A stretch of 64,000 nucleotides of DNA, from NCBI GenBank assembly GCA_965203875.1, contig OZ241914.1, forward strand, positions 333,209-397,208. Reading direction: 5' to 3'. Positions 20,554 to 49,251 of the stretch are shown one piece after another. The notes beneath the pieces are model-generated. The model was not told the origin of the DNA and ran no database searches. It saw nothing but the letters and a program-made list of their open reading frames with translations. This stretch comes from Bdellovibrionales bacterium (lineage in GTDB: Bacteria; Bdellovibrionota; Bdellovibrionia; Bdellovibrionales; JAUICD01). A program made the translations under genes and the position numbers. How positions within the stretch are numbered: the stretch's first letter is position 1; each line of letters starts with the position of its first letter.

Positions 20554-20700
20554 AACCGAAGGGTTTTAAGCAATTCTTTTGTAGGTTACCTTGAATGTTA
20601 GGCAACATTTTCAATAAGTGCACACCTAGCTTCACTTTCGGCCTCCGGCCTATTCGTTACGCTAGTGCACACTTATTGAAAACGAAGACCTTTAATATAA
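20553..20700 (-). repeat. Nested-hairpin extragenic repeat, copy 1 (sense on minus strand, downstream of recA)
   Basis: The minus strand reads TAAAGGTCTTCGTTTTCAATAAGTGTGCACTAGC...GGCCGGAGGCC...GCTAGGTGTGCACTTATTGAAAATGTTGCCTAACATTCAAGGTAAC. It is homologous to the copies at 28941, 32679 and 49141. Confidence 0.7.
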
Positions 20701-27709: not shown

Positions 27710-28942
27710 ATGAATATTAAAAAAAATGTTTCTATTAGAGAACGTGGTGTGGCACTGCTCATATCTTTGTTTAGTATTATGATGCTTAGCTTTATTGCTG
27801 TTGAAGTTAGTTATGATACTAGCATTGACTACATTATATCGAGCAGAGAGTACCATAAACTCAGAGCTTATTATGCCGCAAAGTCTGGAGTAGAGTTATC
27901 GTTACTTAGAATATTGATGTACAAAAAAGCACAAAGTCAATTTAAACAACAGTTATCTGCTAATCCTAGTTTAGTTGATACAATATGGAATTTTCCATTT
28001 TCTTGGCCTGTTGATATACCAGAAGATTTGGCTGGTGTAGATCAGCAAGGTATAACAGAAGTTTCCAAGGAATCATTGTTAGAAGACGTGCAGTATCAAA
28101 CTATGATTCAAAGTGAAGGTGTTAAAATAGATATAAACTCACTTGCGGCTGCTAATGAATCTTTAGCCAATTCTATAAAGGTGCAGCTTGCTAGCTTATT
28201 TAGAAATTATATAGACTCGTTAGAAGAATCAGATTCAGAAATAGAAGATGTGGATTATGAAAGAGTGATAGAAAATATAAAGGATTGGGTGGATGCAGAT
28301 GATATGTCATTTGATAATAGAGATGAAAAGGCTCTGTATGAAGATCCGAATTTACCTTATAATAGGGCATTTAGAACTTTGGAAGAATTAAGGATGGTGA
28401 GTGGTGTTACAGATCGAGTTTTTAATTTTCTTAAACCTAGTATAACGGTGTATGGAGTGGGTGGTGTAAATCCAAATAAAGTAAGTAAGGTGGTATTAAG
28501 ATCAGTTCATTCTACTATCACTGATGAGATAATAGATCGAATGAATGAGCATTTTGAGCAGTCTGGCCCTTTTAAGAACGAAGATGATTTTTTTGGTTTT
28601 CTATCTAGGTTTAATGTAAATGTTAATGAAATTAAGGATTCTGGCATACGGTTATATTTTTCTGAAGAAGGTGAGACAAATTTTTTGATAAAGAGTGTTG
28701 GAAAGTCTGGGGTTGTGAACAAAGAGGTACAAGTTGTGGTCTATGACAGAGATAAAGTTAAAAGTATACTAGGAATTTCTAATAGGCAGGCGGCTGTTGG
28801 AACTTCTACTACATCTACAACTTCTACTACTGCCAGTGGTGGGAAAAGTGATGAAGTTAGTCCTGCTGCCTCTACGACAAGTACGGTCCCTTCGAAGGTT
28901 CCTCAGGGTAGACCTGAAATAATATATTGGTATGAAAGCTAG
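27710..28942 (+). CDS. Type II secretion minor pseudopilin GspK-like protein with Thr/Ser-rich C-terminal extension
   Basis: N-terminus RERGVALLISLFSIMMLSFIAVEV; KIDINSLAA, IKDWVDADD, FRTLEELRMVSGV...VNPNK match the GspK architecture. No other gsp genes in the window. Confidence 0.7.
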   Translation: MNIKKNVSIRERGVALLISLFSIMMLSFIAVEVSYDTSIDYIISSREYHKLRAYYAAKSGVELSLLRILMYKKAQSQFKQQLSANPSLVDTIWNFPFSWPVDIPEDLAGVDQQGITEVSKESLLEDVQYQTMIQSEGVKIDINSLAAANESLANSIKVQLASLFRNYIDSLEESDSEIEDVDYERVIENIKDWVDADDMSFDNRDEKALYEDPNLPYNRAFRTLEELRMVSGVTDRVFNFLKPSITVYGVGGVNPNKVSKVVLRSVHSTITDEIIDRMNEHFEQSGPFKNEDDFFGFLSRFNVNVNEIKDSGIRLYFSEEGETNFLIKSVGKSGVVNKEVQVVVYDRDKVKSILGISNRQAAVGTSTTSTTSTTASGGKSDEVSPAASTTSTVPSKVPQGRPEIIYWYES

Positions 28943-29047
28943 AGGTTTTCAATTTTTAATAAGTGTATACAGCGAAACGACAAGGCCAAAGGCCTTAGTG
29001 TAGCTATGTATACTTATTAAAAATGTTGCCCAACGTTCAAGGTAGAC
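28941..29047 (+). repeat. Nested-hairpin extragenic repeat, copy 2 (starts at the gspK-like stop codon)
   Basis: TAGAGGTTTTCAATTTTTAATAAGTGTATACAGC...AAGGCCAAAGGCCTT...GCTATGTATACTTATTAAAAATGTTGCCCAACGTTCAAGGTAGAC. Confidence 0.7.
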
Positions 29048-29060
29048 TCCAACAGACTTT

Positions 29061-29088
29061 CTAAAGGTTTTCAAATTCTATCAACTGC
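29061..29088 (+). repeat. Solo left end of the same repeat family
   Basis: CTAAAGGTTTTCAAATTCTATCAA closely matches the start of copy 3 (CTAAAGGTTTTCAATTTTATCAA). Confidence 0.4.
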
Positions 29089-29128
29089 TACAGCTACAGA
29101 TCATCATGCAAGCTACCAAACAAAGAGT

Positions 29129-29161
29129 TTGACAAAAATTGGGGGGGGGGGGGGGTAACAT
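29129..29161 (+). promoter_or_regulatory. Candidate sigma-70 promoter TTGACA-(AAAATT+G15)-TAACAT with an overlong 21-nt spacer
   Basis: The AGTTTGACAAAAAT context is shared with the paralog promoter at 33696, where the spacer is 16 nt and lacks the G tract. Confidence 0.4.
29141..29155 (+). repeat. Homopolymeric G15 tract
   Basis: Read directly: 15 consecutive G in an AT-rich intergenic region. Confidence 0.95.
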
Positions 29162-29213
29162 ACTTTTTGAGCAGCTTTTTTTTGCTGTTTAAGTCTTTAC
29201 AAGGGGGTAAGGG

Positions 29214-30179
29214 GTGTTTTTAAGTAATTTTCTAAAATTAGGTTTGTACAAGTCATCTTGTATATTGTTTTCATGTTTGTTCTTTGTATCGTGTAATACT
29301 GTTAGTAGTAAGCCTACAGAGATTGTATCTAATGCTGGTAGTAGAAAGATTGCAAGTGCTAGTGCTGCTGCTATGGCTGTAAATTCTAGTGCTTTTTTAG
29401 CAATGCAAGCTTGTCCTGTACTGGCTAGTATTCAGTCTAGAATCCCATCATGGAGGGGTACTCCTGATCGTGATGAACATATTGGTCGAAGACTTAAGAA
29501 CTTCATTACAAATAATTACCCTGATCGTGATGAACATATTAACCGCTACAACGCAGAATACGTTATGAATATGCTACAAGAAACAGACGGTCAGGGTAGA
29601 ACCTTGCACCAGAGGCTTATGTTGGAGTTATCTTCTAATAGTGATTGTTTAAGTCGTATAGGTGATCTAAGAGAAAACATATGTTTTTACAGAGAGTATA
29701 GCGAAGCTTGCGATGCTTTGCATAAGCTTGACAAGCTAGACGGGGAAACTATTATACAAGAGTTTGAAGAGTTTGCAGGAGCTTCTATAGAGTCTATCGA
29801 TCCTAGTCAGTTAGTAGGTAAACTTGATGGGTTTATTCAAAGCAGAGGTTTGATTGCCAGATTCTTTCATAGGGAACCAGTGTTATACAAAGAACCGTCA
29901 TCACGAGAGGAAGAATTAGAACAATTAGAAGCAGAAGCGAGATCGCAGGAAATGAATTTTAGAACATCTCTTATAACAGCCCCTATAATACTGGCACTAC
30001 TGTCAGGAATACATAAGGCTGCAGCGACAACTGCTGGGGCAGCAGCAGTGGGAGCGGTGGGAACGGTAGGAGCAACAGTAGTAACACTGGCTATGGTTGG
30101 TGGTGTAGTTTGGCTTGCAACTGGTGGATTTGACAAGAGATTGAAAAATAGACTTAGACCTAGAGCAGAAAATCCATAA
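29214..30179 (+). CDS. Lipoprotein family A, copy 1: N-terminal lipobox, Cys-containing middle domain, Ala/Gly/Val-rich C-terminal membrane segment, Arg-rich tail
   Basis: GTG start 6 nt after AAGGGGG. LYKSSCILFSCLFFVSCNTVSSKPTEIV is paralogous to 33759..34568. C-terminus AAATTAGAAAVGAVGTVGATVVTLAMVGGVVWLATGG...RLRPRAENP. Confidence 0.75.
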   Translation: MFLSNFLKLGLYKSSCILFSCLFFVSCNTVSSKPTEIVSNAGSRKIASASAAAMAVNSSAFLAMQACPVLASIQSRIPSWRGTPDRDEHIGRRLKNFITNNYPDRDEHINRYNAEYVMNMLQETDGQGRTLHQRLMLELSSNSDCLSRIGDLRENICFYREYSEACDALHKLDKLDGETIIQEFEEFAGASIESIDPSQLVGKLDGFIQSRGLIARFFHREPVLYKEPSSREEELEQLEAEARSQEMNFRTSLITAPIILALLSGIHKAAATTAGAAAVGAVGTVGATVVTLAMVGGVVWLATGGFDKRLKNRLRPRAENP

Positions 30180-32558: not shown

Positions 32559-32645
32559 TAAAGCCCTTCGTTTTTGATAAGTATATATAATGAAATGACA
32601 AGGTTATAAACCTTTAGCACGGTTAAACATATTGCTGATAGTAAA
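32559..32645 (+). repeat. Degenerate copy of the nested-hairpin repeat (array member a)
   Basis: TTAAAGCCCTTCGTTTTTGATAAGTATATATAATGAAATGACAAGGTTATAAACCTTTAGC aligns with copy 2 (AAAGGTTTTCAATTTTTAATAAGTGTATACAGCGAAACGACAAGGCCAAAGGCCTTAG). Confidence 0.45.
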
Positions 32646-32678
32646 AAAACCGCAGCCGCAAGGCTGGTTGTGCAACGT

Positions 32679-32790
32679 CTAAAGGTTTTCAATTTTATCA
32701 AATATTTGATTAGCAAAGCGGCAAGTCGGAAGGCTTAAAGCGTAGCTAAGAGAATATTTGGTAAATGTTAACCAACGTTCAAGGTAGACT
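32679..32790 (+). repeat. Nested-hairpin extragenic repeat, copy 3 (array member b)
   Basis: CTAAAGGTTTTCAATTTTATCAAATATTTGATTAGC...AAGTCGGAAGGCTT...GCTAAGAGAATATTTGGTAAATGTTAACCAACGTTCAAGGTAGACT. The arms differ from the other copies but stay complementary. Confidence 0.7.
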
Positions 32791-33695: not shown

Positions 33696-33723
33696 TTGAC
33701 AAAAATGTAAGAGAGGGTATTTT
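33696..33723 (+). promoter_or_regulatory. Candidate sigma-70 promoter TTGACA-16 nt-TATTTT of lipoprotein family A copy 2
   Basis: Consensus -35, a 16-nt spacer and a TATTTT -10-like hexamer, about 35 nt upstream of the ATG at 33759. Confidence 0.45.
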
Positions 33724-33758: not shown

Positions 33759-34568
33759 ATGTCTTTTAGACAATTTTTTGATTTAGGTTTATATAAGTCA
33801 TCTTGTATATTGTTTGCCAGTTTATTTTTTGTATCTTGCAACACTGCTAGTAGTAAACCCACAGAGATTGTATCTGCTGCAGGAACTAGGAATATTGCTA
33901 GCTCTGCCATAACTAATATTAATGCTAGTGCATTTTTGATGATGCAATATTGTCCTGTGGTTACTCGCATTCAATCTAGAGTCCTAGAAGCTGGTGGCAG
34001 TCTTAACGGTGAACAGATGATGGCTTTAATGCAAGAAAAAGATTTTACAGGCAGAACTTTACAACAAAGACTTATGTCAGAATTGTCTTCTAATAATGAT
34101 TGTATTAGACGTGTTGCTGAGCTTAGAGAAAATATATGTCTTTACGGAGAGTATAGTGAGGTTTGCGAAATTTTATATCAACTTGAAAAGCTAAAAACAG
34201 AAGATATTGTACAGGAGTTTGAGGAGTTTACGGGTGCCTCTGTAGACTCTATTGATCCTAGCCAGTTGCCTGGTAAAGTTGAGGCATTTGTAAACTCTAA
34301 CAGTACTTTCTTTGGTAGAATAAATAATACACTAAACAATAATAAACATATTATGATTCCTGCTGTTATTGCATTAGTATTTATAACTGTAGCAGCAGCT
34401 TTACCAATAATTCCAGCAGTAGGGGCAGCATTAGGTTATGGTGCAGTAACAGCAGCTTCGGTACTAACAGATGTGGCGGCTGTAACCGTAATTAGTACAA
34501 TTGGAATGTCGTTGGTTGGCTGGTTAATTTATAGAAAAGATGTAAGAAACAGAAGAAGACCTAACTAA
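33759..34568 (+). CDS. Lipoprotein family A, copy 2
   Basis: ATG 5 nt after AAGGGGG. MSFRQFFDLGLYKSSCILFASLFFVSCNTASSKPTEIV is shared with copy 1, as is RENIC.Y.EYSE.C...EFEEF.GAS.DSIDPSQL. Hydrophobic AGV-rich C-terminus ending RKDVRNRRRPN. Confidence 0.75.
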   Translation: MSFRQFFDLGLYKSSCILFASLFFVSCNTASSKPTEIVSAAGTRNIASSAITNINASAFLMMQYCPVVTRIQSRVLEAGGSLNGEQMMALMQEKDFTGRTLQQRLMSELSSNNDCIRRVAELRENICLYGEYSEVCEILYQLEKLKTEDIVQEFEEFTGASVDSIDPSQLPGKVEAFVNSNSTFFGRINNTLNNNKHIMIPAVIALVFITVAAALPIIPAVGAALGYGAVTAASVLTDVAAVTVISTIGMSLVGWLIYRKDVRNRRRPN

Positions 34569-35395: not shown

Positions 35396-36160
35396 CTAGT
35401 TGTTAAGGATACTTGGTTTAATGGTTCCTTTTAACTCAATTTTGTGCCCACCTAGGCTATCAAAATCAAAGCCATATCCTTTCAAAGCTGCTCCTTCGCT
35501 GTTAGGTATTTGCACTGGTGCAGGCAGTATCAGCTCTAGTTCGTATCCATTTGTTAGTACGTAGTTATACAAAAGGCCTAGCTTTACAGGGCCTACGTTT
35601 ATATCAACTCCTGCTCCAGCTTGGGTGGCCAGAGACAGTGACGAGTCGTCTAAAAGTTCCACATTTTCACTTTCAAGATTCACAAAGTTGTAGGCTAGCC
35701 CAACATCAGCAGTAACATAGGGAGTTAAACGAGAGACCACTTCATCGAAGTTATAATTTCCTCCAACAAACCAAATAAGCCTACTTGAACTACCTACATC
35801 AGTACCTTCTTCTGATAAATCGTGTGAAAAATAAGTAAGACCTGTATCAAAAGATAAGCCCATGTAAGGCTTATACTCTCCAGTCACCATAAACGACGGA
35901 AGTAGAGTTTCTTTCAATTCCAGCGTTCCTTTTGCGGAGATGTTTGACAAGGCATTGACTATAGTTGATGATGGAGCAGTCACTTCTTTGAATGAAAGAT
36001 AGTAATCTTGTTCTCCGTACAGGACAGTGCCCAGCGATAGAGCTACACTCCAACCGTAGTCATCGTAATAAAACACTCTGTCGTCATAATAGTCTCTGAT
36101 TTGGGCTTTGGCATTTGATACAAAAAGACAAACTCCCAGTAGCAACAATAACCTTTTCAT
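35396..36160 (-). CDS. Small outer-membrane beta-barrel protein (OMP3)
   Basis: MKRLLLLLGVCLFVSNAKA signal. GAGGGGG SD before the ATG at 36160. N- and C-terminal blocks are nearly identical to OMP2. Confidence 0.75.
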   Translation of the reverse strand: MKRLLLLLGVCLFVSNAKAQIRDYYDDRVFYYDDYGWSVALSLGTVLYGEQDYYLSFKEVTAPSSTIVNALSNISAKGTLELKETLLPSFMVTGEYKPYMGLSFDTGLTYFSHDLSEEGTDVGSSSRLIWFVGGNYNFDEVVSRLTPYVTADVGLAYNFVNLESENVELLDDSSLSLATQAGAGVDINVGPVKLGLLYNYVLTNGYELELILPAPVQIPNSEGAALKGYGFDFDSLGGHKIELKGTIKPSILNN

Positions 36161-36443
36161 AGATCCCCCTCTTAAGCTGCGTCCCAAAGCCAGTTTTTAC
36201 ACGATCTAATAAAAATATCAATACTAAAGCTTGCCAGCTACGTTGTGCAGTGCTCCAGTTTTGTAGCTGTGCACCTAAGCTAGTTGAGCCATTTAATAAA
36301 ATCTAAAAAACTTACGAAACTACTAAGATCATGCAGCCGAAGGGCAATAAAATTCTTGTTACTAAAAAATACAGCTCAGGCGTAAGCCGGCCAACCTGTG
36401 ACCTCTATGCTCTTGTAAGGATAAACAGCTTCGTACGAAGACT

Positions 36444-37148
36444 CTAGTAAACAAAGTTGACTTCAATTCTGTGGTTATTACTACCTTTAAATTCTGTATC
36501 CAAGTTATTCAAGTATTCTGGTCTGTGTGGCAATAACCTGGTGTAACTATATCCCAAGCCAAGTTTTGCAACCTTAGCATCAATATTCCACCCAAGTCCT
36601 AGTGAAAAAAATGGCACATATATTTTATCATCTGTTGCCAACACTTTTCCTTGTGCACGTGTTGTAGCATCCTCAAGCTGAACACTAGCTGTTCTACCTT
36701 GCCAAAGTTTAATATGATTATGCAAAAACCCAGCTCTGACTGTTAGTTTTGGTGCAAAAGGAATCTTTTCAAAATAAACAGCACCTCCTAGTGAAAATGG
36801 TGCCAACTTTCTTTCTCCTTCCAAGCAGCCGTTACCACTTGTACAAGGAGAATCTTCTGTCGACTCTACTTCATAAACTAGCTCTTGACTATACGATGCT
36901 AGAAACGGAAACTCCAAGTCCAATGAAAGAGGGTGTTGTTCAAATTTATAGCCAAATCTTAAAACAGCAGGAGTATATATCGTTTGAGCTTTATATTTTC
37001 TTTCGATACCAGAGCCAACATCTTCTGTTGTCTGCGTACCAAATAGCATCACACCAAAAGATGGTTCCAGGAAAAATCCAGCATGTGTGTCATCAGTTTG
37101 CGACCATACAACCGCAGGGATAAAAAGTACCAAAAACGCCCATCTCAT
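36444..37148 (-). CDS. Small outer-membrane beta-barrel protein (OMP4)
   Basis: Signal MRWAFLVLFIPAVVWS, C-terminal HRIEVNFVY, AAGGGGG SD. Confidence 0.7.
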   Translation of the reverse strand: MRWAFLVLFIPAVVWSQTDDTHAGFFLEPSFGVMLFGTQTTEDVGSGIERKYKAQTIYTPAVLRFGYKFEQHPLSLDLEFPFLASYSQELVYEVESTEDSPCTSGNGCLEGERKLAPFSLGGAVYFEKIPFAPKLTVRAGFLHNHIKLWQGRTASVQLEDATTRAQGKVLATDDKIYVPFFSLGLGWNIDAKVAKLGLGYSYTRLLPHRPEYLNNLDTEFKGSNNHRIEVNFVY

Positions 37149-48709: not shown

Positions 48710-49135
48710 ATGTCAGAGGAAGCTAAAATGCAACCACAAAAACCGACTGATGAACAAGAACGACTATTTGAAGTAGACAAATTATCCCAGGGATTTGGAA
48801 TAGGAGTTATATCAGCAGCTGGGGCATTATTGGTTATATCGGTGGCAATACATTTATTGAAAATGCTAGGATTAAAAATTGACACCGGTTCAATAGCAAT
48901 TGGAGCAGGGTTTTTTACTGGAAATATAATAGCCATTTTGATTGTATCAGAAATCAGTATATTGTCATATAGTCTGGCCAAAGCAGTTTACGATTGCAGT
49001 AGGAAAATTAATGCTAATGTAGAACGACATAAGAGATGGTACTTTGCTAACGCTCATAAAAATGCATGGTATGGTATAAAACAAGCTCTAACTATAGCAC
49101 TAAGATCTACTGTATCTATCTTTAGAAAAAACTAG
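48710..49135 (+). CDS. Small membrane protein, unknown function
   Basis: 141 aa with two hydrophobic helices (GIGVISAAGALLVISVAIHLL; AIGAGFFTGNIIAILIVSEISIL) and a basic C-terminus. Confidence 0.5.
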   Translation: MSEEAKMQPQKPTDEQERLFEVDKLSQGFGIGVISAAGALLVISVAIHLLKMLGLKIDTGSIAIGAGFFTGNIIAILIVSEISILSYSLAKAVYDCSRKINANVERHKRWYFANAHKNAWYGIKQALTIALRSTVSIFRKN

Positions 49136-49140
49136 TTTAC

Positions 49141-49251
49141 ATAGAACGTTGCTTCGGCTTTTTTAATACATGTACCCTGGCTATACTTTCAGCCTTTGGC
49201 CTTCGGCCGGGCCGTTTCGCTATGTACACTTATTAAAAACGAAGACCTTTA
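49141..49251 (-). repeat. Nested-hairpin extragenic repeat, copy 4 (starts at the bamA stop codon and fills the convergent gap)
   Basis: The minus strand reads TAAAGGTCTTCGTTTTTAATAAGTGTACATAGCGAAACGGCCCGGCCGAAGGCCAAAGGC...GGTACATGTATTAAAAAAGCCGAAGCAACGTTC. Confidence 0.65.

Follow-up and report, generated by a model that had tools for sequence, protein, structure and literature searches.

The locus at 29129-29161 raises the question of why a bacterium with such AT-rich DNA should keep an uninterrupted run of 15 G residues (29141-29155, forward strand) within what appears to be a promoter, and whether the length of that run could decide if the lipoprotein-like gene downstream is expressed. 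The tract lies in a stretch of 64,000 nt (hereafter the window), which has a GC content of 34.3% and in which it is the sole run of G or C of seven or more; under a model of independent bases, about 3e-7 runs of G or C of 15 or more would be expected per window, in keeping with the original prediction that such a run was very unlikely to arise by chance. On its 5′ side, the forward-strand -35 box TTGACA (29129-29134) is a perfect match to consensus, is invariant in all 16 promoters that we aligned and is the first hexamer of the promoter called in the related sequence L001. It is followed by AAAATT (29135-29140, forward strand), by the G15 tract (a putative slipped-strand switch) and by the most likely -10 box, TAACAT (29156-29161, forward strand), which reads TAGCAT in most paralogs and keeps the T at -12, the A at -11 and the T at -7. 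The spacer from TTGACA to TAACAT is 21 nt, both boxes being assigned by consensus only, and every coordinate of this layout was as originally predicted.

An alternative -10 box, CATACT (29159-29164, forward strand), would give a spacer of 24 nt at G15. The choice of -10 hexamer between TA(A/G)CAT and CATACT is ambiguous because, in an alignment of 16 upstream regions, the L029 promoter lacks TAG and keeps CATACT; in that alignment, CATACT is also the hexamer with which the -10 box of a tract-less paralog, TATTTT, aligns. This tract-less version of the promoter is at 33696-33723 (forward strand) and comprises TTGACA (33696-33701), a spacer of 16 nt (AAAATGTAAGAGAGGG) and TATTTT (33718-33723), just as had been described from the window before our analysis. 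It precedes a paralogous lipobox protein gene (33759-34568, forward strand), whose ATG at 33759 follows AAGGGGG (the mechanical ORF start being a TTG at 33723), and whose product has 44% identity to that of the 29214 gene by tblastn. The permissive tract length depends on which -10 hexamer is used, and would therefore be 10-12 G with TA(A/G)CAT or 7-9 G with CATACT; 15 G is predicted to be too long with either. In a 600-nt region, a consensus scan of the G10 allele found in L001 calls TTGACA-16-TAACAT (10 of 12 matches) as the sole promoter-like site, and the same scan calls no promoter in the G15 allele of the window. The loss of 4-5 G that had been predicted to restore a spacer of 16-17 nt thus has a counterpart among existing sequences: the L001 allele, with its spacer of 16 nt.

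Tract length in related genomes had been named as a test of the prediction, and we found that the orthologous locus carries G15 in the window, G10 in L001 and G14 in L002, that is, a different length in each of three assemblies. The window and L001 are 99.67% identical over 6971 aligned bases, with 23 substitutions and exactly one indel, which is the tract itself, its flanks being constant; 25 A/T runs of 6-8 nt within the same alignment are all unchanged. L002, which is from a more divergent strain, has T6 in addition to G14 at this locus. Other orthologous pairs have G16 and G12 (L018 and L028), G17 and G14 (L024:5265 and L025:3845), G14 and G19 (L024:9929 and L025:8388), and G12 in both (L024:7257 and L025:5841, the L025 copy having an extra, interrupted G6 just upstream of its G12). 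As read from assembly consensus sequences, one set of which (ERZ25070167) is of low coverage, tract length differs in five of the six orthologous comparisons.

Might the tract be real but fixed, with no switching, so that these length differences are errors made by long-read sequencing or assembly in homopolymers? No homopolymer is harder to call than a long G run, and the ERZ25070167 contigs have 6-9x coverage, contain split genes and differ by 1 nt from ERZ25067941 in four of six A/T 8-mers; their tract lengths are therefore less reliable and part of the length differences in which they are involved may be sequencing error. The comparison of the window with L001 is free of this quality problem, however, and there a difference of 5 G stands alone among unchanged A/T runs. 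Moreover, the orthologous differences amount to 3-5 nt and go in both directions, longer and shorter, which is unlike systematic homopolymer compression; tracts range from G10 to G17 within one assembly alone; and the tract-less control promoter at 33696-33723, with its fixed spacer of 16 nt, is identical in the window and in a second strain (L030). We consider it improbable that error accounts for the differences. Comparison with L030 also brought to light what appears to be a second locally variable region, at about 35470-36520 of the window (about 4250-5300 of L030), where eleven indels fall within about 1 kb around an ORF at 35396-36187 (reverse strand) in strains that are otherwise near-identical.

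The tract at 29141-29155 is part of a conserved promoter and 5′UTR block of about 90 nt (29125-29213, forward strand), which is near-identical between copies and emerged from the alignment of 16 upstream regions as GAGTTTGACAAAAATT-Gn-TA(A/G)CATACTTTTTGAGCAGC-Tn-...AAGTCTTTACAAGGGGGTAAGG, also written GAGTTTGACAAAAATT-Gn-TA(A/G)CATACTTTTTGAGCAGC-Tn-...AAGTCTTTACAAGGGGGTAAGGAATG. In eleven stretches of this organism (227.6 kb) there are 22 genes with the signal peptide of the family, and the block precedes 15 of these; the 15 instances correspond to about eight distinct loci across three assemblies. Both AGTTTGACAAAAAT and a Shine-Dalgarno-like AAGGGGG (29201-29207, forward strand) are invariant in all 16 aligned upstream regions. 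In contrast to this invariance, n in the 15 copies is 9, 10, 12, 12, 12, 13, 14, 14, 14, 15, 15, 16, 16, 17 and 19; most tracts are G12-G19 (median 14), longer than any permissive length. As judged from consensus sequence, almost every copy would be off, which is plausible but unusual.

The long spacers bear on a further possibility, that a hypermutable tract plays no part in regulation, being either a neutral, slippage-prone remnant copied along with the duplicated block, or part of a 5′UTR or upstream region whose true promoter is elsewhere. Spacers of 18-25 nt, as in most copies, would render TTGACA useless as a -35 box, and read-through from the gspK-like gene that lies upstream of the block (27710-28942) is possible. 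However, long uninterrupted G runs persist at one and the same site in all 15 copies, and also in a second, unrelated promoter (described below), in a genome of 34% GC. In 227.6 kb, the G or C runs of eight or more number 17, and every one of them lies on the sense strand within the promoter spacer of a lipobox gene; there are none elsewhere. Homology upstream of non-orthologous paralogs starts about 4-10 nt before the -35 box and extends as far as the start codon, and that similarity should stop a few bases upstream of TTGACA is as expected if TTGACA marks the functional 5′ edge of a promoter. The consensus scan finds no other promoter-like site in the intergenic region, and the spacer of the tract-less paralog is exactly 16 nt. 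We therefore give a tract without any role the same small chance as sequencing error. Least probable of all, and in our opinion hardly credible, is that the G run acts as a G-quadruplex or as a regulator binding site and not via spacer length. In its favour, the G residues are on the sense (non-template) strand in every tract, and a run of 15 could in principle fold into a three-tetrad quadruplex with 1-nt loops, for which the original prediction gave 15 G as the minimum. However, 9 of the 15 tracts are shorter than this, so that we rejected the quadruplex as a conserved feature, and the placement of the tract between the two consensus boxes is enough to account for the data.

The explanation that we favour, and hold to be likely from the sequences compared, is that slipped-strand variation of the promoter-spacer homopolymer sets the transcription of each lipobox gene independently. 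The G15 run, which lies in the spacer of a putative sigma-70-type promoter (TTGACA...TAACAT) before a lipobox membrane protein gene, would be a hypermutable homopolymer, and slipped-strand mispairing during replication would cause G residues to be gained or lost. At 15 G, the spacer of 21 nt (24 nt with CATACT) would leave the 29214 copy off or very low; at 10-12 G, a spacer of 16-18 nt would turn the gene on, and expression from the presumed transcription start site would be length-dependent and reversible. The locus would then be one unit of a multi-gene system of at least a dozen paralogs, most of those that we fetched having the same block and each having its own tract length. The candidate phase switch of the original prediction gains support both from the differences between strains and from the presence of the same block, with G9-G19, before so many paralogs; and we suggest that random on-off switching of these membrane proteins probably takes place in this bacterium.

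Promoters and coding regions in this family need not have travelled together. Some paralogs have a different, tract-less promoter type, which lies behind a GC-rich hairpin. The coding regions of L026:9983-11069 and L029:11115-12186 are 96% identical and their similarity begins about 18 nt before the start codon; their promoters differ, that of L026 being the poly-G block and that of L029 being tract-less. Such arrangements suggest that promoter blocks and coding regions may have been reshuffled among paralogs by recombination.

The block also contains a T run in its predicted 5′UTR, for which the original prediction was correct as to presence and off by one base as to position: the T8 of the window is at 29176-29183 (forward strand), not 29177-29184. 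It varies from T6 to T9 in orthologs and paralogs and is interrupted in L026 and L027, and it may be regarded as a second, shorter slippage-prone run. In the window it sits in the loop of a weak hairpin (about 29166-29193), with a predicted folding energy of -16.1 kcal/mol (z = -3.05). We considered this hairpin as a regulatory element and rejected it: the changes between paralogs are not compensatory, and the hairpin is not conserved among them because its 3′ arm is missing, by deletion, in two copies (L024:5332 and L025:3909). A search of the window against Rfam gave zero matches.

What the promoter at 29129-29161 would control is a 321-aa lipobox protein (29214-30179, forward strand), the gene for which starts with GTG immediately after an in-frame TAA. 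GTG is the start codon in the window (29209-29216) and in L001 (GGGGTG), and all other copies of the block lead to ATG (GGAATG or GGGATG); the GTG could further lower translation of the 29214 copy. The N-terminus reads MFLSNFLKLGLYKSSCILFSCLFFVSC followed by N, with a lipobox-like FFVSC whose cysteine (Cys27) is invariant in the family alignment; the product is thus a predicted lipoprotein, with an N-terminal signal peptide ending in a lipobox. The signal peptide is followed by a conserved, helical N-domain, then by a variable C-terminal region that contains two hydrophobic segments, and finally by a basic tail. Mean pairwise identity in the family is 96% in the signal peptide, 88% in the N-domain (about 190 aa), 27% in the C-terminal region and 65% in the basic tail. 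This layout, in which a conserved promoter and signal peptide are joined to a divergent C-terminal region, fits a set of variable membrane proteins. Surface exposure may be presumed for such proteins; the two hydrophobic segments and the basic tail, however, make an inner-membrane topology possible instead, which would weaken any analogy with immune evasion.

Two further features of the family may be noted. In the window, the N-domain is longer by 19 aa (PDRDEHIGRRLKNFITNNY) owing to a 57-nt tandem duplication (29462-29539, with CCTGATCGTGATGAACATATT at 29462 and again at 29519); P0002 is the sole other member of the family alignment that has it. In addition, L018:17169-17897 and L028:5050-5778 encode a lipoprotein with the family signal peptide (LGLYKSSCILFSCLFFVSC) and a mature part that consists of repeats (SPMEYVIKY...KAGVEIP) and is unrelated. 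Use of the signal-peptide module extends beyond the first family.

The 29214 product has no match in Pfam or NCBIfam, and a sequence search of the PDB gave nothing meaningful; the AlphaFold2 model was poor (mean pLDDT 45) and all-helical. The family alignment had zero matches among GTDB species representatives, and a profile search of 1.84 billion representative proteins gave 14 matches, all within the same small family. A word-indexed search recovered 28 relatives, about 13 of them on one contig of 1.6 Mb and the others on a contig of 1.24 Mb and on short contigs. Scanning JGI metagenomes for the promoter pattern gave four contigs (L020-L023), all of them unrelated or G-rich junk. Judged by these searches, the gene family is apparently confined to this lineage.

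Poly-G spacers are also found before a second lipobox family (VKNQYLIIFITNIFLIAC..., 309-332 aa), whose two paralogs are 68% identical to each other and have no significant BLAST similarity to the first family. Here the tract lies between TTGACT and TAG(A/G)AT, as G25 with a spacer of 32 nt at L027:12054-12078 and as G11 with a spacer of 15 nt at L029:8434-8444, both genes being on the minus strand. As the second family has a poly-G promoter of its own, the poly-G spacer device is not limited to one gene family; and with many paralogs that have independent tracts, together with this second family, a population could show many combinations of proteins. It is to our minds an even question whether there is a still larger system, in which poly-G promoters, about a dozen or more and each switching independently, would serve two lineage-specific lipoprotein families as genome-wide contingency loci, with blocks swapped among paralogs by recombination. 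Separately, a 141-aa ORF of the window (48710-49135, forward strand) has no lipobox and contains a membrane module that tblastn matches to the C-terminus of the second family (36% identity, E = 7e-8); comparable free-standing copies are at L024:6612-7031 and L025:5189-5608.

Upstream of the promoter block, between it and the gspK-like gene, there is a palindromic intergenic repeat (28943-29065), REP- or MITE-like and about 110-125 nt long, with inverted arms of 27 nt (28952-28978 and 28998-29024) around a GC-rich core, AAGGCCnnAGGCC. It is partly deleted in L002. The repeat is dispersed, with further copies in the window at 20566-20691 (reverse strand), about 32571-32790 (forward strand) and 49198-49248 (reverse strand).

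The host is an uncultured Bdellovibrio-like bacterium with a small genome (about 1.6 Mb). The AlaS encoded in the window has 75% identity to its counterpart in a MAG labelled as Bdellovibrionales, the next matches among GTDB species representatives having 49% identity or less, and a literature search found no description of this organism. Other genes of this genome of about 1.6 Mb encode a Fic-domain protein, an ankyrin-repeat protein, a SWIB-domain protein and a large reprolysin-like metalloprotease (L026:12234-14782, L029:4052-5209, L024:11974-12465 and L018:18015-20891). The presence of such genes near loci of the family hints at a possible association with a eukaryotic host. The same genome has a CRISPR-Cas locus (L018:1-6555), which encodes Cas4, Cas2, Cas1 and a 1516-aa Csx12-type protein in a type II-B-like layout and which lies about 3.4 kb from a member of the lipobox family.

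Promoter-spacer tracts of this kind are well established in other bacteria. [quoted passage not shown] The porA arrangement resembles the one proposed here in having poly-G between -35 and -10 (the tract of opc is poly-C). In contrast to the present loci, porA and opc are single genes with no family that has a common promoter block, their products are a porin and Opc, and their tracts are about 9-14 nt. A further parallel is offered by T. pallidum tp0126 and the tpr genes, for which PMC7864442 (citing its references 15 and 16) describes poly-G in the promoters of putative envelope protein genes, with several paralogs having tracts whose lengths vary, in tpr both within and between strains. The tracts of T. 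pallidum do not reach the lengths seen here (they have about 7-12 G) and belong to a GC-rich genome, several tpr tracts overlap or adjoin the -10 box instead of lying in the spacer, and the products are beta-barrel candidates, unlike the lipobox proteins considered here.

A similar layout is that of the M. hyorhinis vlp system, where poly-A tracts occupy the promoters of all the lipoprotein genes (Citti and Wise 1995, as summarised in PMC10502178). By that summary, the two systems have in common a multi-gene lipoprotein family with a homopolymer-bearing promoter for each gene, a highly conserved 5′ region (promoter and signal peptide) in front of an otherwise divergent protein, and, as we propose for the present case, combinatorial expression through independent switching of each copy. 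They differ in that Vlp uses poly-A in a mollicute and the present system uses poly-G in a diderm, Bdellovibrio-like host; here, too, the conserved part extends over an N-domain of about 200 aa, and some paralogs have a second, tract-less promoter type. We found no sequence homology to Vlp or to other known variable lipoprotein families in Pfam, NCBIfam, the PDB or the 1.84 billion representative proteins, and the present system is Vlp-like in layout and, by sequence, not a member of the Vlp family.

The mechanism is already a textbook one; the novelty is in the host lineage, in the protein families and in how many loci are involved. Our literature search found no paper that combined Bdellovibrio, phase variation and homopolymeric tracts, and no report of repeat-mediated phase variation for this phylum. 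The setting is new as well: an uncultured, small-genome, Bdellovibrio-like lineage and an orphan lipoprotein family that is unmatched elsewhere in 1.84 billion representative proteins. For annotators there is a warning, in that a consensus assembly of such a genome captures a single, arbitrary state of expression; and for existing read data there is a testable prediction, namely how lengths are distributed at each tract. Should the tracts indeed switch, presumably under selection for switching, the family would mark the part of the envelope that is under the strongest fluctuating selection and would provide a handle on the lifestyle of an organism that is seen only in metagenomes. If the genome-wide contingency set proves to be true, it would point to strong fluctuating selection on the cell envelope of this bacterium, whether by host, phage or prey.
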